NCBI GenBank assembly: GCA_001724265.1
Contig: MEDY01000071.1
Span: 1-64,000 of the forward strand
Reading direction: 5' to 3'
DNA: 64,000 nucleotides
Source: Rhizaria sp. SCN 62-66
Lineage: Eukaryota
The notes under the pieces were generated by a model. It made no database searches, was not told the DNA's origin, and saw only the letters and a program-made list of their open reading frames with translations. This document shows, piece after piece, positions 18,601 to 50,656 of this stretch. Both the position numbers and the translations under genes were made by a program. Within the stretch, counting starts at the first letter, position 1. Every line of letters begins with the position of its first letter.

Positions 18601-21600
18601 TCCTGAGGCGGCACCAGCTGCGGCAGAGGCTGTGTGAAACGTCGAGTGATCGTTAAGGTAAAGCGCATCATGATCATCAACGTCGTCCGCATCGCTATCA
18701 GAACCAACCTGAGCATCCTGATCACTGCTGACGTCGGCACCACTACTTGCGTCGTCACTCTTGTCACCTCCCTTATCGTCATCACCTGAACTGTCAAGTG
18801 GACCTTTTGGAAGTACATCTTTACCTCCAGCTTTGGCACCACGGACGCGGGGCTTTTTTGAGCGGCGTTGACCTTGTTGTTTGCGCGCACGCGCGAGCCT
18901 CTGTCCAGCGCGCGGCCCGTTGGTTTTGTTTGCTAGCTGGGGCGTAAAAAGATGTCCGTAACTAATCGTGGGCACGCCCTTGAGTGCAGAGGCCAGGCGT
19001 TCGCGCTCGCGTTCACGCTCCCGGTCACGGCGCCTCTGTCCGCCAACCGAATCTGACCCTGCAGCAGCCGCGGCTGCTGCTGCCGCGCCTTGTGCAGCGG
19101 CAAGAGTAATATCAGCGGCAGCCTGCCTGGCCAATGCAGCTCCCAGCGAGCCCCCCGGAGCACCCGATCCAGCCTTAGCAGTAGGTGTGATGTCGCCGGC
19201 CAAGGCCTGCAACTCGCGCGAGCCGAACACCGGGGCTAGCTCCTCTGCACTGAACCCGCCCATAGCACCACCGAGACGAGCACTGGCACGCGAGCCGGCC
19301 GTGGCACCCAAGCGGGCGACGCTACCTTGGCGCCTGTGCCCGCGCGGAGCTTGTCCAGGAGAATTATCTAAGCCAGGAGTGCCGAATGCGGTAGACAAGC
19401 GCCGAAGAAGCATTGCAGTCGAGGTGGCCGCCTTACCGCCACCCGTTGCTGCTGCGACTGCAGCTGCGTTGACAAGCTTGCGTTCCTGTCGCTCCTGCCG
19501 GCGGCGCGTGCGGCGTTCAGCATCCACGACATCCAACAAGTACGCGTCGGTCCACACAGAGCCAGGAGCTGGGCCCTGGTGCTGCGCGTATTGGCGCAGC
19601 TGCTGCCGGCCGGCGCGGCGGCGCACACGAGCGCCATAGTCGCTGTCATCGTTACTCACGCTGTTGCTGCTGTCATCAGAACTCCGGCCGTCGTTGTCGT
19701 CGTCGTTGTCAGATCGGTCCGCGGCGGCGATTGCACGTCGAGTAGTGCGGCGGCGGGTTTCGGAATCTGAGTTATCGCTCAGATCACTTTCGCCAGTCAG
19801 TAACACACCGGTGCGCCGCCCACCGCGACCCGTCATTGCGCCGCGGCCAGCACCAGTTAGACCACGGCCGAGTCCAGCCCGTACAGTCGATGCGATTAGC
19901 TTGCGAAAAAGCTCAGCACTTGTGCCACCGCCGCCGCCTCCACTCGCTACGGCTGCCAACGCCGCCGCTGCGCCGCGGCATGCGCGTTTGGGCAGACCAG
20001 CCCCCTGAGACGCGCTTGTGAGCATTCGGAACGGACCGGGGCGCAGCGAAGAGGGCATGGGCTGGCCAAATGTGCGGTGGTACTGGCCTGTGTACACGCC
20101 GTGTGCACTACCAGCAGGCTCCTCCTCCTCATCATCGTCACAATTGACTCTAGCACTGTCTGTAGAACCAATTTTCCCGTGCTTGCCACTTTTGCCACGC
20201 GCGTTTATCTTTTTCTTCCCACCCACACCGGCACCGCGCGCTTTAGAGCCAGCGACAGTGGAATGCAACGGGGGCTCAAACGCACTAGGCGGCAGCAAGC
20301 CCTCTTCGTGGCCGAAAAAAGCTCCCGCCTCCAGCCGCAACACAGGGATCTCATACTCAAGTCCGCGCGCCAGCGCCGCAGCTGCAGGGTTTCCAGCTAA
20401 GGCAACAAGCCCTGCGGCGGAGGCGACGCCCATCTCAGACGGTGGAAGCACTTGCGGGGCGTACTTGTTTGCGGAGACGACGTAGCTCAACGAGGCGTGC
20501 TTCGGCATCAAGTCGGCCGTGGCAGCACCAGCGCGAGGAAGCACGCAGGTTCGCACAACAGTGCATGCACCAGAGACGATAAAGTACACCGAGTCTGCCA
20601 CAGCGCCAGGAGCAGAGATAACTTCAGACTGCTTAAACACGAGTTCTTGCAGCGAGTAACGCAGCGAAGCCTGGATGTGAGGATCTAAGATTGTGAAAGG
20701 GTAGTGTTTGCGGATGAACTCGCCGCGCGCCTGCAGAATTGCTGGCGTGGCAGTCCCAGTGCCTCCCAATGCGCCAGCAGCGGCCGTAAAGCCGTCACCA
20801 GCAGCAGTGCGGCCAAGCTCTGCAGCCACAGTCGCGCCGAGCGGCATACTTACCGCAGCTGCCAGCGCAGCACGCGAGGCCAGGTTTGCAGCAGCGCGAA
20901 CGGCGTCTGCGTAGTGCTCGCGGGTGAGCGTGAGGAAAAGACAGTCGTCGAGACAGCGGATCGACGCCGAGCGAATCGCAGTGGCGCCAAGCGATAAGTC
21001 GCCAAACTGCTGGCCCGGCTTGAGCACCGCCATCATATCGCCGAGGTCCGAGTCAATGCCGGCGCTAGGGTGCGATAGCCGCAGCACGACGGGCGCGAGC
21101 ATGGGGTCGAACGCGTCGAGCTGCGAAAGAATCTTCAGCGCGTCGACAGCCGCGGGTGTCGCCAACGAGAGACCGGGGATGACTGCGCCAGCCGCGGCAG
21201 CGTTTGCACTGGCGGCAACGCCAGTGAGACTCGGCATAGGCGTCGCGGTTGATCGCTCCGGCGCAAAGCCAAGCGCGGGAGTCGGATGCAGCGACACGAG
21301 CGCGGGCGTATGAGAGCCTCCGTGGCGACCGCCACCAGGCGTCGGCGCAAACAAGTGGTGCTGGCTGCTGCCGGAGGCGTTGAGCGAACGCCCCGGTCCA
21401 GGGGTGGCAGGCCCCGGGGTCTGTCCGAGCGCGGCCGTGGGGATGGCAGGCGTCGCAAGACGCGAGATAGCGCCTCCGGCGAGCGCGGGCGCAGGTCCGA
21501 ATCCGGATGATGACGTTCCCGTGGAGACGATAAACGAGGGGCGTTTGTTGGGTGTCGCACCGATGACGCCGGAGGCCGGCGCGGAAGGAATCGGTGAGTG

Positions 21601-24600
21601 GATTCTGGGTGAGCCGGCGCTGGGAGGCGAAATAGTCACTAATGTGCCTGTCACGGTACGGCTGCGCGCAGCTGGCTCGATCGTTGCGGCAGCCGCAGCG
21701 AGCAGCGCAGAGGCTGACACTGCGCCATTCAAGGCATCTGCGCTGTTTCCAGCACTAGCGCCGCCGGCGCCAACAACGTTAACCATCAGTGCGTCGCCTG
21801 AGAGCGCAGCGGCAGCTGCGACTGCCGTCGCCGCGACAGCCGCGCCTTGCCCCCCGCGGCGCGCGGACTTCGCAAGCGACTTGGCAGCGTCGTAAACCTC
21901 TGCGCTAAGTGAGGCACCGAGCCCAGCCTGTTTAACGTACACGCCCACACGACCTTTGAGGATGAGGTAGTACAGATCGCCGACGTCGCCCTCACGGAAC
22001 ACGATGTCACCGCGCGGATGCGCCGCAAGCCGCAGCTGCGCAAGCACGGTTGGAAGGTACGTGGGCGCTGTTGCAGGCGCGTGCAATGCAGCAAGCGGCG
22101 CCTCAAGTGCGAGTGACAAGGAGTCAAGACCGGGGCTTGATCGACCGTCACCGTCGCCATCAGCTGCTGCAGCGGCTGCCGCGGCGGCGTGGGCAATCGA
22201 TGCGTTCGTTGTTGCAGGAGAGTGTCCCGCAGCAGCAGATGCGGCGGCCGCAGCATCAGCTGCAGCGGCTGCAGCCTCTTTGCGTCTTTGCTGCAACTCT
22301 CTGCGCCGTTTAAGCTCCAGTGTAACAGCCTTGACCGCGGCGCCATGGGCATGTGCGAGCTGTGCAAGGACAGGTGGCAGCGTAATCGCGTCTTGCAGCC
22401 ACTGTGCCAGGTAAGCAAGCTCCCTGCTGCTGCGTTCGCGCGCCGGCAGTGCCAGCACAGAGTGCCAGCGGTGCCGCGCAGCACGAGCCAACATAGCATC
22501 AAATGACGTCTGCAGATGCCCTGCCAAAGTCAGAGATGGCGAAAGTGTCGCGAGCGCACCCACACCGACGCGGGCACCGACAGCGTTTCCGGTACCTCCA
22601 TTATTGGGGCCACCTGGTGAAGACAGGCCGGGGGGAGACGACGGAGTGCCAGCATTGAGCGACGGGCGCGGGCGAGTGGGCGTGCGCAGCAGAGCAGAAT
22701 TGCTATTGTTGCCGGTGCTGCTATTCGGTGCTGGTGTCGGGGAAAGAAGGCCGGATTGCGGCGCAGCCCCTAACGCGCCGGCACCAGCACCAGGAGAGGG
22801 TGCAGGGCTTGTGAGTACCAGAAGCGACGAGCCCGAAGCAGACTGCGGGAGTGCGGCCGCTGTTCCTGCGCGCGCCCTCTGCGGAGTTGTCACAGAAGCT
22901 GCCGCACCAGAGCTGGGACCAAGCACAGGCGTAGTAGCCGAGAGCGATGAGGCGCTTGTACGTGCGCGGCCGCGCGACGCAGCCATTGCTGCAAAAAAGC
23001 TGTCTTCGTCTTCACCAGGACCAAGGGTCATCACGGTGGGCGCGCCGGCCTGGACAGAGCCCAGACCGGGACCGGGCGCTGCAGCGGCGCCGCGGTCATG
23101 AGAGCTGGAAGCGTTGCGTGGAGGCGTCAGGGCATCGCTTGTGTTGGACCGAACCCTCCCAAGCAAAAGCTGTTGCTGACCTTGTTGCGGCGTCTGCTGT
23201 TGGAGCTGTTGTGCGGTGTATGAACCGCGATGGACAGTCTGGTTGAAGCCAGAAAGCGTTTGAGGTCCAGTGCCGGATGGTGCCGCGGAGTGCTTGGCGA
23301 CAGGCGCAGTAGGACTAGACAGGCTTGGACTCACAAAGCCAGGACTGCCTAGACTTGAGCTAGGGCCGGCCGAGAGTGGCGATGCGCCATCAACCTCTGG
23401 ACTCGCGTCAGGGTTCGTAGTGAGGAGAACCATGTTCAGGTGACTGGGCAGTCCCGGCGTTGGCCCCGTCGCGCCCGCCGCCGCAGCATCTGCAAGAAAT
23501 GCGGCCACACGGGCTGCCGTTGCAGTATCGTCCTCGTCGTCGAGCGCAGCCGTCGCCGGCACTGCGCCACCGCGGTGCCCAGCAGCAGAGTTCGCAGAGC
23601 CCGCAGGCCGGTGGTCCTCGGAGACGCCGCGCGCCCGCGTGCGCGGCTGGGACGTCCCGGGGCCCGACATAGCGCTAACAGTCACGCCGTTCAGGCTCAC
23701 CCCGGCGCCGACGCCGTCACCGTGGCTGCCGCCGTGGCCGGAGCGAGAGCTGGAGGCCGGCGCGGGGCCGGGTCCGGGCGTTGTGGTGGGTGTGGCCAAC
23801 AGCAGCGGCGACGGCGACGCTAAGAGCAAACCGGTCTGGCGCTGCTGGCTACCTTGGGCGTTGAGATCCAGGAATGACCCGGCATCAAAGCTTGACTGTG
23901 CACCAAAGCCGGGGGGCTTCTGCGCCGAAGCGCCAGCTGTCGGCGACGGAGGGTGCATCGACGTCGTGGGCGCGCTGTACACGGCGTCGAGCGCAGCAGC
24001 AGACGCTGCGGCGGCGGCAGCAATCGCCGCAGCGCCTGTTAAAGGCACAGCAGGAGTGACGGCAGCCGCCGTCGCAGCCGGGGTTGGTGTTGTAGTTGCA
24101 GAAGACGTCGCAGCGGGAGTCGGGAATTTGGGGGTTGTGGGTGCGGCAGCGGGCGTCGTGTTCCCGGTCGCAGTCGCCGACACGGGGGGCGAAGAAGCGG
24201 GCGTGACAGCGGAGAACGCGGGCGACACAGTCGCTGACGACGACGCCGACGACACCGAGTGCGAACTCAGCGCGGAGCCAGGCAGCGATTGTGAGTGGGA
24301 GTTCGCGTGCGGTTGTGACTGTGCAAGTCCGCTGCGCTGAGCAGTGGGAACAAACGCAGCTCCATCAATGCCGCCAAGTCCGGGACTGCTAAACCCTAAG
24401 CCAGGCGCGGCCGAGCTGCTCGCAGCTGTGAGGCGGGTGGACGTGCGCTCGGCCACGCGCATGCGTCCTCCAGCGTCCGCGTCAGCGTCGAGGCCGGCGA
24501 GGAACAGTGCACGGTCACCGAGACCGCCCGCGTGCGTGCGGAAGACGGGGAACGAGTCGACGCTCTCGTCGTGTTCGGCGTCAACCACACGCATCGACCC

Positions 24601-26775
24601 GCGAGTGGAGCGCGCGGCTCCATGCAGTGGCGCGGGGAGGCCGGAGCCGCCACCCAGCGCGCCCGGCGCAGAGGCCAGCGCGCCCGCAGCCGCAGGGGCG
24701 GCGGCGGGGTTCACCAGCGCGCTGCGGGGATGCAGCCCGAGGGCCGGCGAGCCGCGCACGGAGCGCGTGCGCGCAGACTGCAGCGGCGATGCGGCGCCGG
24801 AGCCGGCAATGGGCGACACGCCCCCGCGCGGGGACGGGCTGCGCAGCGCTGGGGACACAGAGTCCGAGGTCGAGATGGGAATGGTGGGGGTTAGCGCTGG
24901 CACAGGTGTGTTGCCATGAGGCGAAAATGCCCCTGCTGCGGCGGCCGCAGCAGCGTCATCGCCGAAACTGCCCTTCAGCTGGCGCGACACGGGCCGCGGC
25001 GACCCCGCGACGACTGCACCTGCGGCGGCGGCGGCGTCGCCCTGGCTGTGACGTGGCGAGGCGCCCGCGTCGTCGGAACAGGAGGAGCGCGCGCCACCCC
25101 TGCTGTTGCTGGTGCTCCGAGTAGTGCCTGCGGACACAGCATCGGCGGCGTTGTTGATTGCGTCATCTACTGTGTGCGGAGCTGCGCGGCGCGGCAGCGA
25201 GCCGCGGTGTAGCTGCATTTGCGCAAGACCCGTGGTTGGCGAATTAGGACTGTTAGGATTGTTGTCGTTGTTGTAAATAATGTTGAAGTTCGGGTTGCTG
25301 CGATTGTTCGATTGGCTAATACTGCGACTGCTGCTGCCGCTGCTTCCCGCGCCTCCAATACCGCTCTGCGTTGGGCTACGCAGCGGGCTGCGTGGCCCAC
25401 TGCCTTGATGATACACGAGCCCTTGCTCGCCGGCTCTGGCGTTGACGTTGTGCGAAGTGCTGGTCGCGTTGTCGTCGCCCAGAGGGCCGAGCCCGACGCC
25501 CAGGTCGAGGTCGGGCCCCACGCCCGCGTGCATGAGCTGCAGTTCGCCCTGGATGTCGCCGAAGCTGTGCACGGGCACTCCGTTGTACACGAAACTCCCG
25601 CGCGTGCTGCCGCCACGACTGCTGCTTGCACTGCCGCCGCCGCCGCCCGCGCTTCCACCGTGACCCTCAGTCGCGAGCCTGCGGTGCCGCTGCGCAGTCG
25701 AGCTCGACGCCGACGCGGAGCCCGAGCCGGAGCCGGATCCGCTGCCCGAGCCCGTCGGCGAGGCCGGCCCACCGCCCGGCGTGCCGGTCGCGTGGGCCGA
25801 CGCGTAGCTCAGCAGTCCCGGCAGCGGCGCCGCGGGGCCCGCCGCGGGCGCGGGCGGGTACGACGGTGCCGGCCGCGCGGCCGCCGACGTGTGGGAGAGC
25901 GCGCGGGGGGCGCGGCCGGGCGACCCGGGGTAGTGCTGGCTCGGACTGCTCACGCGCGCGCTCGCCGCTGCTTGCGCCGCCGCGGCTGAGGTGGGCGAGG
26001 TGAGGGCCGGGGTCGGAGAGGACGGCAGCGCAGGGGAACGGGTGGACGCGGGTCGTGAGTGCGACCGCGCGGGACTGTATGCACCGGAGTTGCCGCCTCT
26101 GCCAAAGTGGTCTGGGTTCCCGGTCGAGCCAGGGAGCGGCAAGTTGGACGCCGCGGGCGGGGACGGGAGCGGGGGCGAAAGAGCGAGCGGGTCTGCGCTT
26201 GCGTACGGGGGCGCCGACAGCGGGTTCGAAGCGGCAGAGCCCGAGGCGGGCACCGGATATGAGCCGCGGGGAAATCGTGCAAAGCCGGACTGTTGGGCGG
26301 GAGAGCCAGGGGTCGCGATGACCAGCGTCCCAGACGAGATGGACGGAGACACGGAGGAGGACGACGAGGTGGAGTTGCGGAGGCCGGCATTGGTCGCGAG
26401 CTGGGTGACGGCAATGTTGCCGCCTCGCGGGAGCACAGGGCCAAACGACATCATGGGCGAAGCGTCTGGTGAAGATGAAGGAGGAAACGCGGCGCCTGTG
26501 GGGACGCTGGGGACAGTGTTGTAGATGGTATGGAGCGGATTGCTGGTGCCAGTCGCTGTTGGGTAACTGCCCGTCGGCGAGGCCGGGGCTGCGGTCGCTG
26601 CGAGGCTTGCGAAGGGCAGGTCGTCGCTGAATGTTACGCGGCGCGGGGGAAAGGACGCCGATGAGGGCGGAGATGGGGCGACACTGATAGGGCGGCTCGA
26701 GATGGGGCTTGTGGGCAGGGGTAGCGGAGGGTCCCGCGGAGGCGGGGCGCCAGCACTACCGGGCAGCACACTCAT
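15658..26775 (-). CDS. Giant (~3700 aa) protein with two cyclic-nucleotide-binding domains in low-complexity sequence
   Basis: Single stop-free ORF. cNMP1 is GDIVFREGDVGDLYYLILKGRV ... LKPGQQFGDLSL...RSASIRC. cNMP2 is VISAPGAVADSVYFIVSG...LEAGAFFGHEE ... RRSCTVLA. First ATG at 26775. Confidence 0.85.
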   Translation of the reverse strand: MSVLPGSAGAPPPRDPPLPLPTSPISSRPISVAPSPPSSASFPPRRVTFSDDLPFASLAATAAPASPTGSYPTATGTSNPLHTIYNTVPSVPTGAAFPPSSSPDASPMMSFGPVLPRGGNIAVTQLATNAGLRNSTSSSSSVSPSISSGTLVIATPGSPAQQSGFARFPRGSYPVPASGSAASNPLSAPPYASADPLALSPPLPSPPAASNLPLPGSTGNPDHFGRGGNSGAYSPARSHSRPASTRSPALPSSPTPALTSPTSAAAAQAAASARVSSPSQHYPGSPGRAPRALSHTSAAARPAPSYPPAPAAGPAAPLPGLLSYASAHATGTPGGGPASPTGSGSGSGSGSGSASASSSTAQRHRRLATEGHGGSAGGGGGSASSSRGGSTRGSFVYNGVPVHSFGDIQGELQLMHAGVGPDLDLGVGLGPLGDDNATSTSHNVNARAGEQGLVYHQGSGPRSPLRSPTQSGIGGAGSSGSSSRSISQSNNRSNPNFNIIYNNDNNPNSPNSPTTGLAQMQLHRGSLPRRAAPHTVDDAINNAADAVSAGTTRSTSNSRGGARSSCSDDAGASPRHSQGDAAAAAGAVVAGSPRPVSRQLKGSFGDDAAAAAAAGAFSPHGNTPVPALTPTIPISTSDSVSPALRSPSPRGGVSPIAGSGAASPLQSARTRSVRGSPALGLHPRSALVNPAAAPAAAGALASAPGALGGGSGLPAPLHGAARSTRGSMRVVDAEHDESVDSFPVFRTHAGGLGDRALFLAGLDADADAGGRMRVAERTSTRLTAASSSAAPGLGFSSPGLGGIDGAAFVPTAQRSGLAQSQPHANSHSQSLPGSALSSHSVSSASSSATVSPAFSAVTPASSPPVSATATGNTTPAAAPTTPKFPTPAATSSATTTPTPAATAAAVTPAVPLTGAAAIAAAAAASAAALDAVYSAPTTSMHPPSPTAGASAQKPPGFGAQSSFDAGSFLDLNAQGSQQRQTGLLLASPSPLLLATPTTTPGPGPAPASSSRSGHGGSHGDGVGAGVSLNGVTVSAMSGPGTSQPRTRARGVSEDHRPAGSANSAAGHRGGAVPATAALDDEDDTATAARVAAFLADAAAAGATGPTPGLPSHLNMVLLTTNPDASPEVDGASPLSAGPSSSLGSPGFVSPSLSSPTAPVAKHSAAPSGTGPQTLSGFNQTVHRGSYTAQQLQQQTPQQGQQQLLLGRVRSNTSDALTPPRNASSSHDRGAAAAPGPGLGSVQAGAPTVMTLGPGEDEDSFFAAMAASRGRARTSASSLSATTPVLGPSSGAAASVTTPQRARAGTAAALPQSASGSSLLVLTSPAPSPGAGAGALGAAPQSGLLSPTPAPNSSTGNNSNSALLRTPTRPRPSLNAGTPSSPPGLSSPGGPNNGGTGNAVGARVGVGALATLSPSLTLAGHLQTSFDAMLARAARHRWHSVLALPARERSSRELAYLAQWLQDAITLPPVLAQLAHAHGAAVKAVTLELKRRRELQQRRKEAAAAAADAAAAASAAAGHSPATTNASIAHAAAAAAAAADGDGDGRSSPGLDSLSLALEAPLAALHAPATAPTYLPTVLAQLRLAAHPRGDIVFREGDVGDLYYLILKGRVGVYVKQAGLGASLSAEVYDAAKSLAKSARRGGQGAAVAATAVAAAAALSGDALMVNVVGAGGASAGNSADALNGAVSASALLAAAAATIEPAARSRTVTGTLVTISPPSAGSPRIHSPIPSAPASGVIGATPNKRPSFIVSTGTSSSGFGPAPALAGGAISRLATPAIPTAALGQTPGPATPGPGRSLNASGSSQHHLFAPTPGGGRHGGSHTPALVSLHPTPALGFAPERSTATPMPSLTGVAASANAAAAGAVIPGLSLATPAAVDALKILSQLDAFDPMLAPVVLRLSHPSAGIDSDLGDMMAVLKPGQQFGDLSLGATAIRSASIRCLDDCLFLTLTREHYADAVRAAANLASRAALAAAVSMPLGATVAAELGRTAAGDGFTAAAGALGGTGTATPAILQARGEFIRKHYPFTILDPHIQASLRYSLQELVFKQSEVISAPGAVADSVYFIVSGACTVVRTCVLPRAGAATADLMPKHASLSYVVSANKYAPQVLPPSEMGVASAAGLVALAGNPAAAALARGLEYEIPVLRLEAGAFFGHEEGLLPPSAFEPPLHSTVAGSKARGAGVGGKKKINARGKSGKHGKIGSTDSARVNCDDDEEEEPAGSAHGVYTGQYHRTFGQPMPSSLRPGPFRMLTSASQGAGLPKRACRGAAAALAAVASGGGGGGTSAELFRKLIASTVRAGLGRGLTGAGRGAMTGRGGRRTGVLLTGESDLSDNSDSETRRRTTRRAIAAADRSDNDDDNDGRSSDDSSNSVSNDDSDYGARVRRRAGRQQLRQYAQHQGPAPGSVWTDAYLLDVVDAERRTRRRQERQERKLVNAAAVAAATGGGKAATSTAMLLRRLSTAFGTPGLDNSPGQAPRGHRRQGSVARLGATAGSRASARLGGAMGGFSAEELAPVFGSRELQALAGDITPTAKAGSGAPGGSLGAALARQAAADITLAAAQGAAAAAAAAAGSDSVGGQRRRDRERERERERLASALKGVPTISYGHLFTPQLANKTNGPRAGQRLARARKQQGQRRSKKPRVRGAKAGGKDVLPKGPLDSSGDDDKGGDKSDDASSGADVSSDQDAQVGSDSDADDVDDHDALYLNDHSTFHTASAAAGAASGPGGSSGRPRDPDVAPAGLRGVPPPSWLPRRSCTVLAATPQVRVYALPMPVFLRVFKGSRRMLLQALSYAHLSHLHDRVLAVAGIPASDATRTAVRAAAELAEETARKLSLLNPRQQRLVLQEALLHAERGQVEEALAAHAVNRLLNRDAPGSAGAAAAVAGASSSGASPHADAQAIAAAAHKALIASGHLLATRARPDTPLGGRPGTPGFGSRPALGHGHGHVPPAAGHARPGGAGGTSPTLGGRRGSVADGAPHGAPAVRRGSVTDLVLPGPGIGLSSGPAPPLSGRRGSVTGGEAFSAGAGPGTGARRGSIGLGLTLSASIETVAASTALSNAVHGQDAGLVALHSHAAAAASPTAAEGSGMTRYTSLLERALHSDHGRDPAASASSGRASGSLMGVGGGAGAMLRGAVGAGTVIDLLSSGAPLMSHGVGGRAGSRRSSIASNAVITVTQKAAVAAAAAAAGAARRGATPPVPDRVATPPAMMETAAAMAAAVVQAAEESKANGTGTAGSGNTPTRARILSFQTGGDARGPLALAYAPGSTASGQAPAVPGSPRGTPTPTQPRGLAASRKGAELERQQQQQREERLRREREQEQREQQAQEQQRLQRVRDGDIDHALQSPHDASAVAEASTINPGVNTASGHNTARYTTSARIDCGVHEPVRADPFLRAAARRRALAVALAAGDDPETAAARAAEAADEDAPGIAAAGSLDRFSFTGAVSAAVPVDALVVTLAENCDIYDREARRRRHVFGAMARALGGSANPRAAAAQVIAHPWAQTAPLSGDSSSVTLPNISRSAAVRQQQQQPQFQQQQQQQQQSGAVVAPFCERVAPSSFSPFSDAPATSQHNSSARGPRTQPHTRTVPLSTSARGPPSHPPASLAALAVTTSSASGAQTARSAGASGGSSKLASFSPGGGRARDAAAAAAVAAADPKGWLRSRLEASANARPAGAAGVGGVANDDNVQPTVWNYAQFVSRQPK

Positions 26776-27299
26776 TGAGTGTGGATTCTTCCTCGGTCGC
26801 AACTGCAAGTGTGAAGTGGTGGTGATGCAACTTCTAGCAGCAAAATAATTCCAGAGAGTCGAGTCGAACAGCTGCTAGGTTCTGAAGAGTGGGGATGAGC
26901 GGCAAGTAACTGGCGTTCAACCTCTCCGCTAGAAGATCGTACATAAATAGGGAATATGACAAAGAATGGAGGAATAAGAAAATGAATGAATGATTCATGT
27001 GGGGATACTTTTAGATGTTGTCCAGGCAACACCTGCGACGTTTCATTTAGCGAGTTCTGATCTCCTGAATTAGCCTGCCAGTCGGCGACCCTGTGTCACC
27101 ACAAGATACGGTTGCGACCTGAAGAAAACATGTTGCGATGCACTTGTAGTAGTGCAATGAGTGAAATACTTTAACAGAAAGTGTATTAGAAATGTTATTT
27201 GGATAAGTCATATTTAACAGATAATTTGATAAAACAAAGTAGATGTTCCTCGCATATCTTGCTTCCGCAGTAATCTCAGCAAGCACGATCATGTCATGC

Positions 27300-31553: not shown

Positions 31554-32112
31554 AACGTGTGCTGGAGTAGTTTTATACAAGACTGGGTGTGTGGAATACC
31601 TGTTGTAGTCGTTTAACAAGACAATGATCAAAGGACTGGGTGGTGAGAATCGGTAGAGGCAACGCACGAGCTATTGGTGAAGAAGGAGATCTCTAAGGAA
31701 GCAAATGTAGACAATAAAGCCGACCCCGTTAAATATCATTAAACATGCATATTAACGCGCACTATATAAATCACATGGTACTCCTCAAAATGGCATAATC
31801 TTGTTTTACATATGAAAAACCTGTCGTATTAGTCGGACGGTTTCTCATCGATCCTGAGTGTTGTTGGAGGATCGGAAATGTCAAGAGAGTGACTCGTCGA
31901 AACGCCGGATTCACTCGGATTAATGGATCGCATGATATCAATATAATTGCAGTTCAAGTCGTGAAATCCATAGACTAGTGTATTATTCACGTTTTTTTAG
32001 CGTCATTTATCTCATCATAAACAATGATCGTGATATATCTGATGTTTTGTGATTTACCGCTCGCACCTTTCACTTTGGCGACTCATGCATTCTGAGTCAT
32101 TGCTGTACAATT

Positions 32113-34849
32113 TCACTGCCAGTTGTCGCCGGCGCGCCTCCTCGCCGCAAGCGCACTCGCCCCGCCGGCAAGGTCGTCCATCGCGGCGGCGACCGCAGAC
32201 TCCCTCGCGGCGTCCTGCCTGCGCTGCGCCTCCCTCTCGACCTCGGCGGCGGCAATCTGCAGCCGCAGCGCGTCGCGCTCCGCCGCCACGCCCTGTAACC
32301 GCTCCAACTCGCGCGCCATCGCCTCCGCGCGCGCCGCCGCCACTGCGCGCGCCGCGGTCCCGCCCGGAGTGCCAGCCGCGGCTGCGGCCTCCGTCTCGGC
32401 CTCGGCAGCCTCCGCGCGCGCACGGAGCGCGGCGGTCTCGCGCGCCGCGGCCTCAGCGGCTGCTTCGGCGACATGCTGCGCCTTGCGAGCGCGCGCAGCC
32501 TCGGTCTCGGCCCGGTTGACGCGGTCGGCCAGCGCCGCGGACTCGGCCGCCGCGCGGGCCGCCGCGGCGGCGGCAGAGGCCGCCGCAGCGTCGTTCGCCT
32601 GCTCTGCAGCGCCAGCAGCGGGGAGCAGCGACACGCCTCGGTGCGGCGAGAACGCGCTCGCGGGGTCGCCCCGCGCGCTGTTCAGCCCGGCGCCGCTGAC
32701 ACCACCGCGCGCGGAGACAGGCGAGGACAAGGGCGCAACCACTGCGGCGGGCGCGGGCCGCGAGAGGAGCAGGTCAAGCTCGAGCTGCAGCTTCCGCGCG
32801 CGGTCGTTCTCGGCGAGCGTCGCCGCGTCGGCCGTGCGCAGCGCCGCCATCAGCGCGTCGATGTCGCGGTTCGCCTGCGCCAAGTCGCTGCCAACGTAAA
32901 AACGCGTGCAATTATGAAGAATGAGAAAAACAAACGAATGTGAGATCAAAGAGTTGATTTTGAGAGATACAATAGGAATAATGAGTACACAATGATTCAA
33001 GGAGTCTCACGTACAGTTTGGCCCTCGCGGCATCCTTGTTGGCGTCGACCCCGCCGTCCCGCGCCTCCAACGCCTCGCGCCGCGCGTCGACCTCGCTGGC
33101 CAGCGTCGCCAGCTCGCCCAGTGCGATCTCCAGCTCGCACCACCCGTCGAACGGCGCCGGGCTCCCCGTGGCAGCACCGCGCGCACTGACATCGCCGCTT
33201 GTGGTCTTGTTCTTGGCGTTGGCGTTTCTACTGAGGGCGTTCGTCGCGGCCTCGGCCTGCGCGGCGGCATGCTCGTCCCAGGCCAGCTGCTCACGGTCGC
33301 TGAGCGCCGCCCACTGCGCGCCGTCGCCGCCGACGGGCACCACGGCGCCGCGCTTGCTCTCGGCGACCGCGGTGCAGCCAGCCGTGGCGGCCGCGGCCGT
33401 GGCGACGACGACCGCGGCCAGCGCCAGCGCGGTCGCGACGGCGGGGCCCGTGGCCGTGCGGTCGGGCAGCAGTAGCCGCGGTGCGGCGAGCCCCGCCGCG
33501 AGCGCCCAGGCCGCGACAGCGACGACGGCGGCGGCGAGGAGCCCGCGGCGGGGCACGCGCGCGCAGGCGAGCAGGCCGCAGATGACCGCGAGCGCGCAGA
33601 CGAAGCCGACAGCGAAGAGGCCCAGCTCGATGGCAACCCACGGCCGCAGCTCGTGCGTGGTGACCGTGAGCGGCGTCGCCGCGGCAAGGTTCCAGTAGTC
33701 GTCGAAGTCGAGACACGCGACGGCGACCGAGGCCGCGATCAGAAGCAGCGCGACGAGCAGGCACACGAGCAGGCAGTCGCGGCTGCGCGCGAGTCCGCCG
33801 CCGCCGCGGGCGCGCGCGCGGTCCGCATCCGTGGCGCCGCGGCAGCAGCAGCAGAGGCACGTGCAGCACCCGCCGCCGCTGCTGTTGCTGCCACTGCCGT
33901 CGTCCTCGTAGTCGTACTCAGCAGCACTCATCTTCCCGCCTACGCCTGCGGTGCCGCCGCCGCCGCCGCCGCGCGCACGCGCGCGCGCGCGCACCAGCGG
34001 CACCGGCAGCGCGCCAGTAGCGACGCGCCGCGCGAGGTATTGATCCGGCGGCACGGCGTCGATGACGGCCAGCAGCCGTGGGTCTGCGCGCTGCAGCCCG
34101 CCCACCGCGGCGGCGGACACGCGGCGCGGCGGCAGCGTCGCCAGCAGCGCCCCCAGCGCCGTCGCCTCGGCCGGGGTCAGCCGCGCGCGCACGGCCCCGG
34201 AGCCGCCGCCGGCGTCCGCGTCGGCCGCGAGCGGGAGCGGGTGCGCGTGCGCGGGCGCGTCGGGTGGCAGCAGCGTAGAGCCCGCGGGCAGGTCGGTCGG
34301 CAGCGGGAACCGCGGGTAGGCGGGCGCGAGCTCCTCGGGCCACAGCACGCCCGGTGCGCGGTAGTAGCCGTCGTAGTCGTCGTAGCGCACTGTGGCCGCG
34401 CCGTCCACAGCGCCCGGCGCGGTAGCGAGACCACGGGCTGAGGCTGCACCATTGCTATTGCTATAGTTTCGTGAAGAAGACGACTCGGTCGGGTATGCTC
34501 CAGCAGCAGCACTGTTCGCGCCGGGAGGTGCAGGGCCATAGGGCGCAGTAAGCACTGTCGCAGCAGGCGCGGCTCCCGCTGTAGATGGAGGTCCTGTGGT
34601 AACTGCGCCTCCAGGCAGACGAAGCGGGGGCAGCCGCGCGAGAGGCTGCGCGGGTACGGTTGCCGCGGGGAACTACGGGGTGTAGATGCGCTCCAGAGCA
34701 GGATTCGCGGTATATTGAGTCTGCATCTCAACGTTTGACGTTGATGGGCCACCAGGGGTGATGCCGGAGGATGTTGTCCGCGGCGCAGCCCATGTGACGC
34801 CGCTGCTTGGCTGCGCTGGCATACCCTGTTCTAACGCAGCATCGTACAT
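32113..34849 (-). CDS. Four-TM membrane protein with Cys cluster and C-terminal coiled coil; 2 exons (34849-33015, 32887-32113); in-frame TAG at 34673-34675
   Basis: ORFs 34673-34924 and 32912-34555 share one frame and are separated only by one TAG. The GTACGT...CAG intron at 33014-32888 (phase 2) joins RAKL to DLAQANRD. CCTCLCCCC precedes four hydrophobic segments. Stop is TGA. Confidence 0.7.
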
Positions 34850-35538
34850 AGGGTATAATATTAGATGATGATGTATAATTTGAAAAATAAACAGTGAGTT
34901 CGTTGAGATTCCAGAAAAATGCACTTAAAATCGTACTGACGATCAAATCATGGAAATATGGGCTATTCAAGCAAGTGCCAGTTCAAATGTTTGCGAGCCG
35001 TTCTTGCCCCCCCCCTTTCAGTCACCACAGGAACGTAGCAGGCCAAAAGGTTGGGAAGAGACCACATACATATATCTGCGGAGAGTAAACACATTCTGAA
35101 TATACGCCAGGATATTGGACTCGTCAATATGTGTAATTTCATCATACATAAAGACACCTTGATATTTCAAGAATATATCCATCTGGATTGAGCATTAAAT
35201 AAAGAGCAGTAAGATAGCGAGAGTAAGAAATCACTGAAAAGGATTTATGCCACAGAGAAAGCAAAGTTAGTTCGCGAGCCACAAGCGAAAAAATAACAAC
35301 ATGTATGACCCGTATCTAAATTTTATGCATACGAAGATCTGGTGGTTGAAGGAGGCAATCAAGCATCTTGATTGACATTCCTTCCCTTGTGTGTGTAGCG
35401 AGCAGTCCATAACTGCGCACACCCACGCTCCTCAAAGACGTTAGCCATCTACGATAGATACACCCGCCGCCTCTACGCGACATCTCCGCGCGCTCACGCC
35501 TCGACCGCGAGCGACGCCTCGGATGCAACGCCCTCTGT

Positions 35539-37069
35539 CTATGGCGCGCTGGGCAGCGGCGAGGCTTCAGCCAGCGGGGACAACGGCGCCGCTGCCGGCG
35601 CGGCAGCCGCGGAGGGCTCAGCCACAGCCACCGCCACGGCCGCTGCGGCGTCAGCCGCGGGCTCGGGCTCCTCCTGGCCCTTCTTGGCGTCCATCTCGGC
35701 GACCTGGGCGTAGGTCGGCGGCTCCTGCTCTTTGCCCTCGACCGCGTCGGTCACAGTCGCCGTTGCAGTCGACGCAGACTCTGTGGAAGCAGCAGCGTCG
35801 GCTTCGGCGTCGCCCGTGGCAGGGTTGAAGAGCTTGTCCTCGAGCGCAGTCATGCGTGCCCAGAACTCTTGGTGGTCGTACCCGGGGGCCGTCTGCTTAT
35901 CAACCTGCGGCTGGCCGATGCCGATCAGCTCGGCCCAGTTGTCGCCAACCAGGTCCTTGAGCTGCGCGTCCGCGTCCGTGCCCGGCTCGAGCTTGCCCTT
36001 GATGAACTTGATCTTGCTCTTGGTGCGCGCGTCAACGAAGGGCGACACGATGGTGTAGAACATGCTGAAGTAGAAAGGCGCGTTGAGCAGGATGGCGGTG
36101 CCGAGACGCTCAGGGAAGCGCGAGGAGAGGCACTTGGCCGACTCCATAGACACGCGCTTGGCGGGCGAGTTGAAGAGCGAGAAGCCCTCGAGATTGATGA
36201 CGACGGTGTACTTAGCGACGGGATCCGTCATCATGCGCGTCGCCATCTCGAGCGTCCACACCAGGTGCTGAATCTGTTGGTCCTCGAACTTGCGCATCGC
36301 CTTGGTGTCGTACGTGCCGTGCATCAGGATCACGGGGCGCCCAAACCGATCCAGGTTGCGCGCAATGCGCAGCTTGCCTGTGAGAGACGGAAACAGAATG
36401 AACAAGAGCAAACGCATGGTGAGACGAGACAGAATACCTCAAGCAAAGCGTGAACTGAATCGCATGGAACAAGCTTTCGGCAAGCTGACAAAGTGAGCGT
36501 GAAAAACGTACCGGTGGTGGCTTGGAACTCGACGTCTTTGGCGCGCAGGTCCTGGGGGCGGTAGGTGGCGCGCCAGGCGACGTCCTCGAGCACGAGCTCG
36601 GTGGCCTTGTGCAGGTCGCAGCCGCGAGCGCGCAGGAAGCGCATCAGGTAGTCGTCCTCGGCGTAGATCGCCTGGATCGCGGGGTCCGCGTAGTACGGAC
36701 TTGCTATAATCGACTGGGGCAAACGGTGGAGGTAAAGGAGTGGACGTCAATAAGGAATACAGCAGGAAGATGGTGAGATTAGGGCAGATCGCGACGATCA
36801 CGATGACAGTGCGGAGCGGGCGTTTTCGTAGCTCTAATGATACAAGCAGTGTCTATACCACCATAGATGCTGTTAAAACAAGAAATACAATGTTTGTCTT
36901 GACGCGCTGTGACCTAGCAGGATTGATGAAGGCTGGTATCGAGAGGACATGGGTTGGAACGTACTTCACGCATCGAATGGATTAGAGCAAGGTTGTCCTC
37001 GGTGATAGTTTCCTTGATGACGTGCATCTCGGGGATGATTTCGGTCGCCGTACTAAATTCTTCAGCCAT
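35539..37069 (-). CDS. CRAL-TRIO (Sec14/PDR16-like) lipid-binding protein; 3 exons (37069-36965, 36713-36512, 36377-35539; extends to 35494 if TAG is read through)
   Basis: DDYLMRFLRAR...WR (CRAL-TRIO N), DRFGRPV, FPERLG...NAPFYF...PFVDARTKSKI. Two GTACGT introns join in frame. Confidence 0.92.
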
Positions 37070-40345: not shown

Positions 40346-40981
40346 AGAGACCCGTGTGTGTAGACTACAATAAGGCCTGTTGGTGATCTAAAATAAAATA
40401 TATAAGAATGAAGGGCGCTAGTGTCCTGTGCTTTTGATTTTAGCTCAAACAACGGATGTGTATGACGATATAGAATCATCAATTAACGCTTGCAACGGTC
40501 CCAACCAGGCAGCGACCGGGACCGTGCCCAGTGGTGCGTCGTGGGTGCTCGCTGTGCGATGTGACGGATATCTTGAGTATACAGTCGTCACGATTAAATA
40601 CGATGTTGTATCTCTTATAGCAGCTGTTTGTTTATGTTAGATTCTAAATTGCAACCTTCACACTAGCGCTTCTACCGGTGACCTGAAGCATACTAAATTT
40701 GCCACAGGTGCCTACTTTACAATTCGGGAAAGGCGTTGTTCTTTCGTCGATTTCTTCTTATATTAAAGTCCCAAGAGAGTGTGACTCTCAATTCCTACTG
40801 GCTTGTGTGTGTTCTATGATATTTACTTGTTTGACGACGACTTTAACATGCGAAAGTAACTCACTTGCCTCTGTTTTGTTTCTCTTGACGCCTCAAACAG
40901 AACTTGACCTTCTCACGAAGCTGGTTCGGCTCACTCACCCTACCATCATCCACCAACGGCCCCGCGTGCTCTCTGGTCGCC

Positions 40982-43900
40982 ATGTATCGTGCGTCCGCCC
41001 AAAAGTCCCCGCGCGCGGCCGCGTTCTCTCCCAGCAGCCCCAATGACGCTACCACACTTGGCCGCAGCCCAATTCCTCCGGCAGCGAACACCCTCGCGAA
41101 TTCCGGCGGCGCCGCCGCGCCGCCCCCGCGAGCGCTGCCGTTCTTTCGCTCATCCACATCCTCACGCCTTGTTGCTGGTGCTTCCGGCTCCGCGCAGTCG
41201 CCCCAGTCCGGTACCTCGTCCCCCGTGCCGCTCCCAGGCAACGCCAACAATAGCACCCTCTTGAACAATACTGCCAATTCCAGTGCCGGCGACTCCCTGC
41301 CTCCGCCTGACCCCCGCTTCCCGCCCGACGGCGCACTGACTTTCTCCGCCGTCGAGTACCCGCCCTCTTTCCACCGCCTCGCGACGGCGGTTGCCGCAGT
41401 GCTGCGCGCGCAGCAACAGCAGCAGCAGCTCGTCGCCGTCGCGCCCGCGCTGGCCTCGCCGCCCGGCACTCCCGCCCAGGCCCAGTCCCCGCTCGGGCTC
41501 GCCGCCGCCGCGGCGCAACAGCAGCAGCAGTCTGCGCAGCAGAGGACGCGGTCCGGAGGGCTTAGCGGCCGCAGCAGCTTCGACAACACGGGCGGAGACG
41601 CAGGCAGTTTCGGCCAAGGCAGTGGTAACGGCAATCACGGGAGCTTTGATGCGATCGTCGAGCTCGAGGTCGAGACAGAGCCCGCGCCAGATGCGTCTCT
41701 TGCGGCAGACACGGCGACGGCGACCGCGGCGGTGCTCATGAGCCAGCCCAACGCGCTCCGCAGCGCGCCCACCAGCACCGGCAACGGCGGCGGTGAAGGC
41801 GACTACGACGGCGACGCGGCCGGCCGCTCTGCGACCGCGCGCCCCGCTCTGACCCCGCGGCCGGCCACCGGTGCCCCAATGCCGGGATCCTACACCGGCG
41901 CCTCGCTGCCCGGCTCGCTGTCCGGGGCCTCCACGCTCCCCGCCTTCTCCTACGCCGCGTCCTCGATGCCCGGCCCCGCGTCCCTGCTCGCCGGACACCA
42001 CGGCCCCGGCGCGGGCGCTGGCGCTGGTGCCGGCGCCGCGCCGCAGCCCCTGACGGGCCAGTTACTTGCCGCGGCCCGCGCGCGCGTGTTTTCGCTGCTG
42101 CGGACGCTGCGGCCTTACCTCGCCCCCGCGCGCTTCCGCCCGTCCTCGGCCGCCGACGCCGAGGCCGTCCGCGACGTGCTGCTGTCGCTCTGGGACGCGC
42201 TGCTGCGCGACCGCGCGTGGGGCGTGTGCTTCCCGCTCGCGGCCGAAGACGTCACCGAGGGCGCCGTGGCCGACGCCGCCGCGGTGCGCAGGGCGGCCGT
42301 GGCCGCGCGGCTGCTCGCGCAGGCTCAGGCGCAGTCCGGTGTGAAGGCCGGTGCGAAGACGAACAGGGACAATGGCGAGAGCGAGAATCTGTTCGTTCTG
42401 TCGCCCGCCGGCGCCGCCAGTGTTGTCGGCGGCGCCCGCAGCGGGGCGAGCGCAAGCGCGCTCGCGGATACGGCTGCGGTGTCCGCTCCTGTGTCGCATC
42501 TGCTGACGGGCCTCTGTGCCTGCTGCACTGGCCCGCTGCGCGACCGCGATGACCGCTTCGCCGCTCGTCTCGCGCGCGCACGTGCCCACAACGCCCGCAG
42601 CAACGCTTGCGACAGCCGCGCCAACCGCGGTCAGGATGAGTACGACGACTGCGAGGACGAGGATAAAGACATCGCTGTCGCTGAGGCCGAAGCTGCTGCT
42701 GCCGCCGCGGTCGCAGGCAAGGGTGCTCGTGCCCCGCCTCCTGGCGAGTGTCGTATCGCACATCTGCTCCTTGAGTCGTTGTTTTACCTGCTGTCCCGCC
42801 ATGAGCTGCATCTGCACCTCCTGATCGCCCCGGCTGCCGCGCCCTTCATGCCGCTGCCGCCAGGCACCGTTCCCACGCCCGTGCCCGGCCAGAGCCACGC
42901 GGCCGCCGCCCAGGCCGCCGCTGCAGGGGGCGCGACCCCCGGCCCGCTGCCGCCGCTGCCGTCGCCGTACCAGCCCTTCGCGACGCCGCCCGTGGGCATG
43001 CTCTCGATCTTCGCGGCGCCCGAGCACGCGGACATCTTGCTCGCCACGCCCACAACCACGGCGACCGCACCTGCTGCGCTGCCCGTCCCGTTCGTCACGG
43101 CCGAGACGGCGGCCGCGGCGGCAGCGGCGTCGGCGGCCGCGGACGTCGCGGCGGCGTGGGGCGCTCGCGCCACCATAGCGATGGGACTTGACAGCGACCT
43201 GTCTGCATTGATCCCCACGCCTGTCGGGACTTCGACCTCGTCCTCGTCGTCGTCTGCCGTCGTTGTCGCGAGCTCAAGCTCGGGCTCCAGTGCGGGCGCA
43301 AACGTGGCCGACGCCGCCGCGGGCGCGGCTGCGGCGGGCGCAGCGACCCTCAAGTCGGCCGCGGCGTCGCTGCCCGTCCCACTGCGGCTCTCTCTGGCCG
43401 CGCACCCCGCCGCGCTGAGCGCCCACAGCCTCGACTCGATTGGGCTCGGCATCTGGGCCCGGACCAGGCTCGTGCTGAGACACGCGCAGTCGGCCGCCGC
43501 CGCCTCGGCCGCGGCCGCTGCAGCCACCGCCGTCTCGGGTGCGCTCTCGACACCCACGCAGAGCGCTGCAGACTGCGCTACTACGGCTTCAGACAGCAGC
43601 GCCTTCGCTGCCAACGCTGCCGCCGCGAGCGCGAGTACCGCGACGCCCACTCCGGTCCCGTCCGCGCCCCCGTCGTCGTCGGCGTGGGCGCGCGTGGCCG
43701 GCGAGCAGTCGTCGCTGCTGCGCCGCGTCGCGTCGCTCGCGGCCCGCACCGCACGCCTCGCGCAGCGCTTGCTCGCGTTCTACTCGCCGTCCGTTGACGT
43801 CGCCACCGAAGCCACCGCTCTGCGCGCCGCGCGCAGGGCTGCTGACGCTAGCCGCCGCGCTAAGCTGGTCCGCACGGTTGCTCGCTCCGACGGCAAATCA

Positions 43901-46900
43901 GTGCGTCGATGGGAGTGCCGTGTCGCGGGCGGCGGTCGCGTGTGCGGCGATTGCCGTCTCGCTGCTGCGGAGGCTGTTGCGCCTTTCACGGACAACGACG
44001 ACAATGCAGACTGTGAGCGCAAGTCCGCAGGCGCGGATCCTGAGGACAAGAGCAATGAGTCGGATGATGTCTGGATCGACTTTGTTACCGACGCAGACGC
44101 CGCACTCTGCCTAAGTATCTCCTCAGAGCCTGCCGCTGTTCGCGAGCGTGACCGCGATGTTTCTGTATTCGACCCTCTTGTCGTTCCTGTCATCAACGAT
44201 GCTAACCACAGTAACGCTGCATCACTCACGATGACGACGAGCAGCAGCAGTAGCAGCTACGGGGACAAGTCGAGCCTTCGTGGCCGCCGGACGGGGCCGC
44301 CTCTGGTTGCCCCGCCGCGCGGTCCCGTCGCCGCGTGCGCCCCCGGGGCCCCCGAGCCGACACCTCCTGGCTCCGCGCCGTGCCGCGGCGGTCGCCTGGC
44401 CGCGTGGCACGCCGCCGTGTGGCCCATCGTCTCGGACTTCGCGCTGCAGACGCTCACGGTTGCGGCAACAGTGTGCCCGGAGTCGCAGCTGCCGCGCGAG
44501 CTGGAGCTCGCGCTGGATGCGCATCGGAGGCACGAGTACGCCGCGCCCGCTCAGGCGCTGCGCCGCCGCGCCGCGGCAGCTGCTGCCACAACCAATGATC
44601 AGGTCAAGGCTGCTGCAACAGACGGCGTGCCCGCTGCGCCGACCGCGGTGCTGCGCGCGAGTGAGTCGTTCTTGCCTCGTCTGCTTGCCGCCATCTCGCC
44701 CGCGGCTGGGGACATGCTCGACCTCGCGATCGCTGTCCCTACGCCGCCAGGCGTGCCGGCCGCAATCGCCAGCGCCGCGGCGCACGAACACGAAGACAAG
44801 AGTGCTGCCACAGACGTGCAATCTGAGGCGAAGACCGATGCTGAGGCTGGGGCGGCGGAGCATGACGCTGTGCTGACGCACACGGCGCCACCCGCAGTCA
44901 CCCCAGACGCCTTTCAGGGCCTGCCTGTGGCGCCGCACGCGCGCTTGCTTGCGCTGCCGCACACGGTGCCCGCGCCAGGGGCCCGTCTCCGTCGCCGCAG
45001 TCAGGCTGTCGATGGCACTGTTCCTTCATCCGGCGCTGCTGCTGCGAATAACGCCGGTGCCGGTGTGATTGCACGCGCTGCAGCGACACTGCCGACCGCG
45101 CTACCGACGGCTGCAGCCGCGCACCTGCTCGGGCTGCCGCAGCCGCGTGCACGGCCCGGCGCCCCGCCCGCTGGCGCCGCCGGCATGGCGACGCTGGCGC
45201 AGCTGCGAGCGCCGGCTCGCTACTCAGCCGACGGTCTCATCGCTGCATTTGAGCGCGAAACGCTTGCCTCAGCAGCGAACGGTGACGAGGCGGCCCTCCC
45301 TAGCGCCGTTGCGCTCGCCCTCGTGCCGGCACTCAGTGCGCGCGGTGGCAAGCCGGTGCCGGGACCTGCGTACCTGGCCGACGACAGTGACACTTCACCT
45401 GCGACTGTGGCTGCTGCTATGGCTGCAGCTGCGCGCGATGACCCGTCGGCCGCAGCAGCAGCCGCTGAGACTGCGCTTGCTGCTGCCGATGGTGCGTTCT
45501 GTGACTGGGACGAGGGTGACAGCACGATCAGTGCGGGCGCGAATACCTATCACCGCAGCGCAATGACACCTGGTACATTTGCATCAGCGGTATCGCGTGA
45601 CGCTCACTCGTTCCTGCTCTCCGCTGCGGTGCCGCTGCTGCGCCGCGCAGCTTTTGCGCCGCCTCCCGCCTTCGTCGATGCCCTTACGCCGCTCATTTCG
45701 CCCACGTTTTCCGCTAACATCTCAATCGCTTTTGGTGGTGATGGTGCAAAGCCTGAAAACGATGATGAGTGTGAGCAGACTTGCAGTGACTGTGAGCGGC
45801 TGCTGTCGCCCCTGCCAGTGTGGAGCTCCTTCACTCCCTCGCTGGCCGATGACAGCTACCCCCGACTGTGCGTGCACACGCGTGGCGACGTGTATGCGCG
45901 CGGTGACACTGCCGCAGCTACACTTGCATTCAACAGAGGCCGCAAAACCTATCAACAGCCACGCGCAAAGCCCCTCTCTGGCAACGACTCCGCATCGAGC
46001 TCGTTCAGTGGATCCAGAATCTCTGCGATGACGGCTGCGGCGGCGGTGACTGCAGGCGATGCTTGGTGGTTACGTGGCCTGGCGTCTCCGGTGGCGCTCA
46101 CTGGCGCGGCACCCTCTGCCGCCGTTGCCTGGGGTCCGTATGTAGCCGCACTCAACTCTATTTTGTATCCGGCGGATTTCTCTCCGTCGTCTTCGTCTCC
46201 GTCGTCTTCGTTCTCGAGCCCGAGGCAGAGTGTGACGGCATCGCTTGCACCAGGATCCAATTCGCGCTCGAACGCGTCTGTGGCATCCGCTGCAGTGGCA
46301 GCCCGTTTGTCGCAGCTGCCATTGGGCGCGTTGGGGGCACCATCGGCTGCCGTCGCTGATGTTGACCAAAAGCCGCTGCATCCGTTGCAAGCCTCGATGG
46401 TCACTGCTGCAGGCTCTATCACCGGACTGTTCTCAGCCGGACCGATGTACGGAAGTGGCGCTCTTGTCGACGCGCAGGCTGGACCTACCCTGCCACTGCC
46501 CACGGTGACTGTGCGCGCGCGCAGTGAAGTCGTGGACGCCAGCACCGGGGCGCTGCGCACTGCCTCCGCTGCTTCTCACTCTGGCGCGCGGCTCCACGCG
46601 TCTGTGTCTGGCGAGAGTGATGCTGTGAACGCAGTTCCTGCTGCCGCTGCAGCTACTCTCCTGCTGCCTCAAGGCGTGCCCGCGCTGTTATCGCGCGTTG
46701 CTCTTCTGTGGCACTTTCGTTCCGGTCCTTTCCTGTTTGGCTTTGCAGCCAAGTGGTTGTCGTACGTCGTCGCTGCACAGGGCTCACTGACTGACCTGCT
46801 GACGAGCTTTGCTGAGGCCGTTGCTGTTGACGAACTGCGCCGCCGCGCCGCTGCAGTGCGTGCGCTGGCGGGGCCTGGTGCCCTACCACCACTGGCGGTT

Positions 46901-50284: not shown

Positions 50285-50656
50285 GCGCGTAGCAAGTTAA
50301 ATACCGAACTAAATGTGAACTTTTAAAATACATAGCTCGTTTTCTTGTTAAATGCAATGTTACTTGTTTGTTTTCCTCCCACATTAAGTCGCAGAGACAT
50401 AAAATATGAAGCGTGACTAATTTGTGGTCTGAGTCGCACGGCCGGCACGCACCTTAAGATTCCAGAAACTCCTACCCAGACCTCGTCACAGCTCCGTGCT
50501 TGTGATATATTATATCGGTTGGGGTATTCAGCATGGGCTTTTACTTTTGTTCGTAAAATAATTCAATCTGAAACCCAAAATTTCTTCTTATATTCTTCTT
50601 TTCAATCACCTCTAGGTTTTAGCCGTTGACTGTTCACGAGTCTCGCTCCAAACATC

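Follow-up and report, generated by a model that had tools for sequence, protein, structure and literature searches.

The first 64,000 nucleotides (nt) of the 192.6-kb contig MEDY01000071.1 of Rhizaria sp. SCN 62-66 (hereafter the window) contain on the minus strand a gene of 869 codons in which codon 59 is an in-frame TAG (34675-34673). A preliminary description made from the sequence alone had proposed that this UAG is decoded or edited. The explanation favored by the present analysis, with a probability of about 0.5, is that the TAG is a genuine premature stop codon that is fixed or common in the population of an organism that uses the standard genetic code. A plain nonsense change is favored because the site stands alone, is not accompanied by a recoding signal, and falls within a part of the protein that is under little constraint.

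The gene model starts at a putative ATG (34847-34849), the first ATG of the frame, which is followed by codons 2-58 (34676-34846, YDAALEQ...ALERIYTP) and by the TAG in the DNA context ACC CCG TAG TTC CCC GCG. At the protein level, the residues around codon 59 read ...IYTP-x-FPAATVPAQPLAR, where x is the position of the TAG. Beyond the TAG, the same frame (FPAATVPAQPLARL...) is open for 552 codons without a stop up to the intron donor CT|GTACGT at 33014. The rest of exon 1 (33015-34672) is supported by the frame score, by the alignment to the only relative identified, and by the synonymous single-nucleotide polymorphisms (SNPs) at 34613 and 34451, all described below. It is joined to exon 2 (32116-32887) across an AT-rich intron of 127 nt (32888-33014, GTACGT...CAG) in a way that keeps the frame (CT + C = CTC). 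Exon 2 encodes an Ala/Glu/Arg-rich coiled-coil-like tail, carries the synonymous SNP 32131, and ends at a terminal TGA (32113-32115), beyond which the DNA is AT-rich for approximately 400 nt. After the TAG, an ATG does not recur in this frame until codon 306, 247 codons past it. The sequence therefore bears out the preliminary description in its account of 58 codons (MYDAALEQ...ALERIYTP) followed by TAG and by a frame open to the intron at 33014, with the next in-frame ATG approximately 250 codons downstream, all in a GC-rich region.

The start at ATG 34849 looks genuine. The GC content rises exactly at this codon, from 0.30 (34850-34949) to 0.63 (34750-34849), and amounts to approximately 0.58-0.70 around the TAG compared with 0.30-0.41 just 5' of the ATG. 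The codon-usage score of the ATG frame lies between 6.4 and 9.5 at 34775-34685 (scoring intervals spanning 34775-34670), where the other frames are negative; it is ambiguous from 34685 to 34580, and the ATG frame is positive from approximately 34580 downward. The GC content at third codon positions (GC3) of codons 1-58 is 0.60, which is typical for the window, as eight other genes display values of 0.57-0.74 over the same span. A 5'-to-3' gradient of GC3 is seen in nine genes of the window (e.g., those starting at 13617 [+], 31553 [-], 26775 [-], and 34849 [-]), with 0.57-0.74 in the first 58 codons versus 0.8-0.9 in the gene bodies and a rise in GC at or near the start codon. Met-10 (34822-34820) is in frame with ATG 34849 and represents an alternative start. 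There is also a possible AT-rich 5' intron of 106 nt (34936-34831, minus strand, GTACGA...TTAG) with a CTAAT branch-like motif; if it were used, ATG 34849 would be lost and Met-10 would become the start, leaving the problem posed by the TAG unaltered.

The region is found in metagenome runs from bioreactors and wastewater that belong to several studies between 2015 and 2025. The presence of the TAG in independent samples was assessed with Logan contigs of four such runs (X3, X4, X6, and X10), which were aligned to positions 31900-36500; the runs in which the TAG is covered (X3, X4, and X10) come from different studies dated 2017 to 2025. These are contigs and not raw reads, and minority alleles are hidden in them. 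No difference, insertion, deletion, or joint was found at 34673-34675 in the contigs of the four runs. The TAG is spanned, with flanks longer than 31 letters to the left and right, by one contig of X4 (record 22, 34626-35008, no differences from the window) and one of X10 (record 6, 34586-34801, a single difference at 34613), and it is covered by a contig of X3 (record 12, 34342-34700, no differences) that extends just 25 letters on one side. At 34613, X4 and X10 have a G in place of the letter of the window, and X4 shows further differences at 34451, 32131, 32024, 35264, and 35342. Run X6 represents the same sample as X10 and carries the letter of the window at 34451. The contigs of X6 and X10 leave the intergenic interval 34826-35133 and the intron of the Sec14-like gene uncovered, a pattern to which no weight was given. 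The TAG is thereby found on three haplotypes: that of the window and X3, that of the sample behind X6 and X10 (34613 G), and that of X4 (34613 G and 34451 G). Since nearby SNPs differ between the contigs and the window, the contigs are not copies of the same data, and the occurrence of the TAG on at least three haplotypes excludes that the source contig was missequenced or misassembled here. No evidence in favor of such an error was found, and practically no probability remains for it once the same three letters are read in X3, X4, and X10 contigs from other samples and studies. Of the two alternatives that the preliminary description had set beside its own proposal, sequencing error is thus discarded and the nonsense allele is the one now favored; a sense codon at the site (e.g., CAG), which would have spoken against its proposal, does not appear in the contigs that cover it, which read TAG.

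The gene belongs to no Pfam family, and a search of the Atlas for look-alikes gave a best score of 0.77. Inspected by eye, the predicted protein consists of a Pro/Ala-rich N-terminal part of 300 residues, a Cys-rich patch, approximately four hydrophobic helices, and the Ala/Glu/Arg-rich coiled-coil tail, which begins in exon 1 and continues in exon 2. The sole relative found is a JGI metagenome protein (P0122), encoded on a contig of 7,889 nt, with 41% identity, and its alignment begins approximately 207 residues past the TAG, 43 codons upstream of Met-306. When the N-terminal 306 residues, with the TAG entered as X, were compared with 1.84 billion representative sequences, only a protein of 58 amino acids (P0123) and a spurious repeat protein (P0124) were recovered. 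The absence of detectable relatives of the N-terminus fits a poorly constrained region in which a nonsense change can persist. P0123 derives from an 890-nt ENA contig, aligns to 34849-34692 with 52 identical residues, and then ends in DRKSVV, a tail that is encoded nowhere in the window and that we take to be translated read-through into an Illumina TruSeq adapter together with the TAG of the adapter. P0123 was therefore rejected as a variant or splice form and treated as a contig-end artefact. Scans of metagenome contigs for orthologous DNA returned nothing apart from a low-complexity match of 21 residues (L001), and scans of genome contigs, conducted both with the alignment and with the neighboring Sec14-like gene as a marker of synteny, returned none.

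To place the codon-59 TAG among the other stops of the window, every stop that separates two ORFs (open reading frames) of at least 40 codons each in the same frame was collected across the 64 kb. A total of 335 neighboring same-frame pairs were identified, and in 316 of them the separating stop is covered by a longer ORF in another frame or on the other strand. The majority of the uncovered stops (16 out of 19) belong to AT-rich introns or spacers, where the GC content does not exceed 0.52. The three in GC-rich DNA are the codon-59 TAG and the stops at 378-380 (+) and 13707-13709 (-), the latter two being antisense shadows of a rhodanese gene and a thioredoxin reductase gene that have Pfam support on the opposite strand. 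The codon-59 TAG is consequently the sole GC-rich stop that is not explained by a real gene elsewhere, and its occurrence exceeds the expectation by chance. A scan for other in-frame stops based on codon scores was swamped by antisense shadows and was superseded by the test of ORF pairs.

These counts leave a variant nuclear code, in which UAG would generally be a sense codon and UAA and UGA would be the stops, as a highly improbable explanation. The window contains stop-free ORFs of 3738, 3131, 1989, 1827, and 1456 codons, and among the 16,380 GC-rich long-ORF codons there are 100 CAA, 430 CAG, 104 TTG, 34 CTA, and 25 TTA. With so many Gln and Leu codons, a TAG of the same meaning should have turned up tens of times, but no second in-frame TAG is present in the coding DNA of the window, in agreement with the reservation of the preliminary description that the giant ORFs lack in-frame TAG despite their many CAG and CAA codons. 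Among ten apparently terminal gene ends read by eye, TAA is used six times, TGA three times, and TAG once. The scarcity of TAG at gene ends would suit a code with sense UAG, and the single case, the apparent end of the Sec14-like neighbor (35541-35539, minus strand), is ambiguous: the tail of this gene shows no conservation and there is a TGA 15 codons past the TAG, so that this stop is not proof of termination at UAG. The 3' flank of the Sec14-like gene is moderately GC-rich for approximately 150 nt; coverage of the flank by an X10 contig extends to 35260. No tRNA gene was found in the 64-kb window, which is a small sample of the genome. A general reassignment of UAG, as in the rhizarian and Iotanema codes that had been cited in the preliminary description, is rejected within the limits of a 64-kb sample.

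The TAG might also be absent from the translated message if the 5' gene model were wrong, either through an atypical GC-rich intron that removes it or through a 58-codon upstream ORF that precedes a main start other than AUG. All five clear introns of the window (4837-4962 [+], 5089-5208 [+], 5565-5690 [+], 33014-32888 [-], and 36511-36378 [-]) have a GTACGT donor, a length of 106-134 nt, a GC content of 0.30-0.47, and a pyrimidine-rich YAG acceptor; the introns lie inside exons with a GC content above 0.7, and the rigidity of donor and size class is unusual. Eight GT dinucleotides occur between the ATG and the TAG, and these match GTACGT at two to four of six positions except for the GT at 34847 (five of six), which was rejected as a donor because it overlaps the ATG and leaves no upstream in-frame start. 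Joining the GTATGC donor at 34824, which has phase 1, to the AG of the TAG, an acceptor of phase 0, breaks the frame, as had been noted before. In-frame introns over the TAG could be formed on the minus strand by GTCACA 34798 or GTTGAG 34732 with AG 34673, by GTAGTT 34676 with an AG near 34521, and by GTATGC 34824 with AG 34603, but each of these candidates has at most four of six matches to GTACGT and a GC content of 0.53 or more, unlike the other introns here.

An error in the 5' gene model draws some support from the resemblance of CCCCGTAG|TT to an acceptor, from the length of the 34798-34673 candidate (126 nt, within the normal intron sizes), and from the ambiguous stretch of the coding score. 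It remains an unlikely explanation, since nothing comparable to the AT-rich GTACGT introns lies across the TAG, where the GC content of the segment is approximately 0.58-0.63, and since the codon-usage score supports the ATG frame inside the would-be intron. Furthermore, record 6 of X10 follows the genome without a gap over 34801-34586, across every candidate acceptor. Splicing-out of the TAG is therefore unlikely, and a main start downstream of an upstream ORF is disfavored by the lack of an in-frame AUG for 247 codons past the TAG, the first AUG of any frame opening an off-frame ORF. Reinitiation after the 58-codon ORF was rejected for the same reason. A +1 frameshift at the stop was likewise rejected: the alternative frame is open from 34830 to 34177 and its codon-usage score is strongly negative from 34580 on.

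The nature of its library bears on how much the collinear contig can show. Run X10 is labeled "METAGENOMIC RNA-Seq cDNA", and an automatic annotation marks it as "RNA? (probably DNA)". One of its contigs (record 8, 625 nt) matches 35984-36382 with one mismatch and then departs from the genome, at the point where the intron of the Sec14-like gene has its acceptor (36378). With exon 2 of this gene starting at 36377, the spliced end of exon 1 predicts the 5-base extension of this contig, including its one mismatch; what remains of exon 1 is beyond the end of the aligned stretch. Judged from this contig, X10 probably holds spliced cDNA of this organism, and if so, the segment around the TAG is retained and unedited in RNA, as record 6 reads the TAG unchanged, with the reservation that it is a contig and that the RNA nature of the run is uncertain. 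Among the runs that contain the stretch, none is listed as RNA, and its sequence words are all but absent from X14 and X15, the two poly-A metatranscriptomes of a single study. Editing that recodes the UAG, either from A to I to give UGG or from U to C to give CAG, is supported by precedent only (the change of UAG to UGG in the delta antigen, described in PMC3542737), and the bridging contig from the cDNA-labeled library reads TAG, which is weak evidence, as minority variants drop from contigs. We regard editing as very improbable. The proposal that the UAG is decoded or edited thus survives in part: readthrough at this single site remains and is in keeping with the synonymous SNPs, whereas reassignment is rejected and editing is unsupported.

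Site-specific readthrough that is kept by selection, with a stop that may serve to gate a low protein level, is the main rival of the nonsense explanation. Three classes of readthrough signals are distinguished in PMC3542737: UAG-CAR-YYA, UGA-CGG/CUA with a stem-loop, and UAG-G/purine with a 3' structure. The codon-59 site (UAG UUC CCC) matches none of these type I-III motifs. The segment 34690-34560 (131 nt) folds with a minimum free energy of -49.1 kcal/mol compared with -45.2 ± 3.7 kcal/mol for shuffled sequences (z = -1.05), and 32 out of 200 shuffles fold as well, in an analysis of local folding. No Rfam match was obtained for the whole window at the gathering score or for 34300-35000 at E values up to 1. 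The 64 kb contain no second case, and we know of no cellular precedent for an extension of 810 codons behind a stop. The readthrough explanation is, on the other side, consistent with the persistence of the TAG on three haplotypes in samples from 2015-2025, with a GC-rich stretch that starts at ATG 34849, and with the same codon-usage frame on both sides of the TAG. A pyrimidine follows the stop and a proline codon occupies the P site, a context in which termination may be weaker.

Several observations weigh against a plain nonsense change, and the strongest of them also favor readthrough. The 810 codons 3' of the TAG contain no second defect, i.e., no further stop or frameshift. All three coding SNPs between the haplotypes (32131 GCC>GCG, 34451 AAT>AAC, and 34613 CCT>CCC) are synonymous third-position changes and would be non-synonymous in both other frames; under neutrality such a pattern has a probability of P = 0.028, given the 862 coding bases covered by the X4 pieces. 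The interval from the TAG to Met-306 contains two of these SNPs, and 34613 is just 20 codons past the TAG. This hints that the region 3' of the TAG behaves as if it were still under purifying selection, in a test of very low power that uses three sites and contigs only. In the relative P0122 a Met is lacking in the vicinity of codon 306, and the block immediately preceding this codon is conserved, which indicates a more upstream start of the normal protein; a product restarted at Met-306 would differ from it. Nevertheless, the missing signals, the solitary site, and the small number of SNPs make site-specific readthrough an improbable, if serious, explanation, and it is a shade more doubtful that the UAG at codon 59 is decoded efficiently enough, without known signals, to keep a protein of 868 residues under purifying selection. 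A premature stop is favored over single-site readthrough.

If the TAG is a premature stop, a nonsense substitution would have hit the N-terminal part, disordered and fast-evolving, of a membrane and coiled-coil protein that is specific to the lineage. Ribosomes that start at ATG 34849 (or Met-10) would mostly terminate after 58 (or 49) residues, and the full-length protein would be made only by basal near-cognate readthrough. The gene would then represent a young loss-of-function or hypomorphic allele; both this status and the termination of translation at the TAG are inferred. A plain nonsense variant would be an ordinary finding of a known kind, and its main use would be to caution against deducing a variant code from a lone in-frame stop in a eukaryotic contig of metagenomic origin. 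Should readthrough of the TAG take place instead, the gene would provide a long cellular protein behind a leaky stop without a recognizable signal, and the rules for eukaryotic termination contexts could be tested in a lineage with only metagenomic relatives. Decoding of the codon would amount to a new cellular site-specific stop suppression or to an early, "ambiguous" capture of UAG in a genome where TAG rarely terminates.

The exons of the window have a GC content of 0.70-0.87, and the introns and spacers are AT-rich. The thioredoxin reductase (13617-15239, plus strand) is 85% (P0002) and 77% identical to metagenome proteins and 64% identical to proteins of Chromera and Vitrella, its best named relatives. 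An insulinase (58516-63999, minus strand) shows 69% identity to a metagenome protein (P0126) and approximately 30-40% to named oomycete, animal, and plant proteins. The named relatives disagree, with chrompodellids indicated by the thioredoxin reductase and oomycetes, animals, and plants by the insulinase, and the lineage is unplaced. Based on these similarities the organism, which is uncultured, can be called only a protist of uncertain position, possibly an alveolate. No report of a variant nuclear code in chrompodellids turned up in a literature search that was narrow and does not show absence. Two of the giant ORFs, 40889-50284 (+, 3131 codons) and 50630-56599 (+, 1989 codons), have between them only two AT-rich islands (127 and 132 nt) and approximately 75 nt of GC-rich DNA, and may form one gene of more than 5000 codons. 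Another region (15658-26874, minus strand) is a single ORF of 3738 codons that is mostly of low complexity and has a cyclic-nucleotide-binding domain as its sole Pfam match.

The codon-59 TAG can be compared with four known situations. In the nuclear codes of Rhizaria sp. exLh and Iotanema spirale, UAG is a general sense codon. The codon-59 TAG differs from these codes in that it occurs once in 64 kb and is absent from the giant ORFs; the likeness lies in an in-frame UAG in a protist coding sequence, with UAA as the stop and UAG read as Leu in exLh and as Gln in Iotanema (PMC5304391). Programmed readthrough likewise involves a UAG behind which a long frame continues in phase, with both parts resembling one gene, but here the context is UAG-UUC-CCC and neither a significant fold nor an Rfam element is present; most of the cases known concern viral replicases or short extensions at the C-terminus. 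A genomic UAG in an apparently intact gene is also what precedes editing in fungi, from which the present case differs in that the organism is no fungus by its nearest named relatives and in that the probable cDNA contig keeps the TAG. In fungal sexual development, A-to-I editing of mRNA repairs UAG to UGG. Unlike a decaying gene, the gene described here carries its TAG on three haplotypes and all three coding changes are synonymous, although these numbers are small; with nonsense variants and young pseudogenes it shares a single early in-frame stop in an otherwise intact ORF, the standard code, and the lack of a recoding signal.

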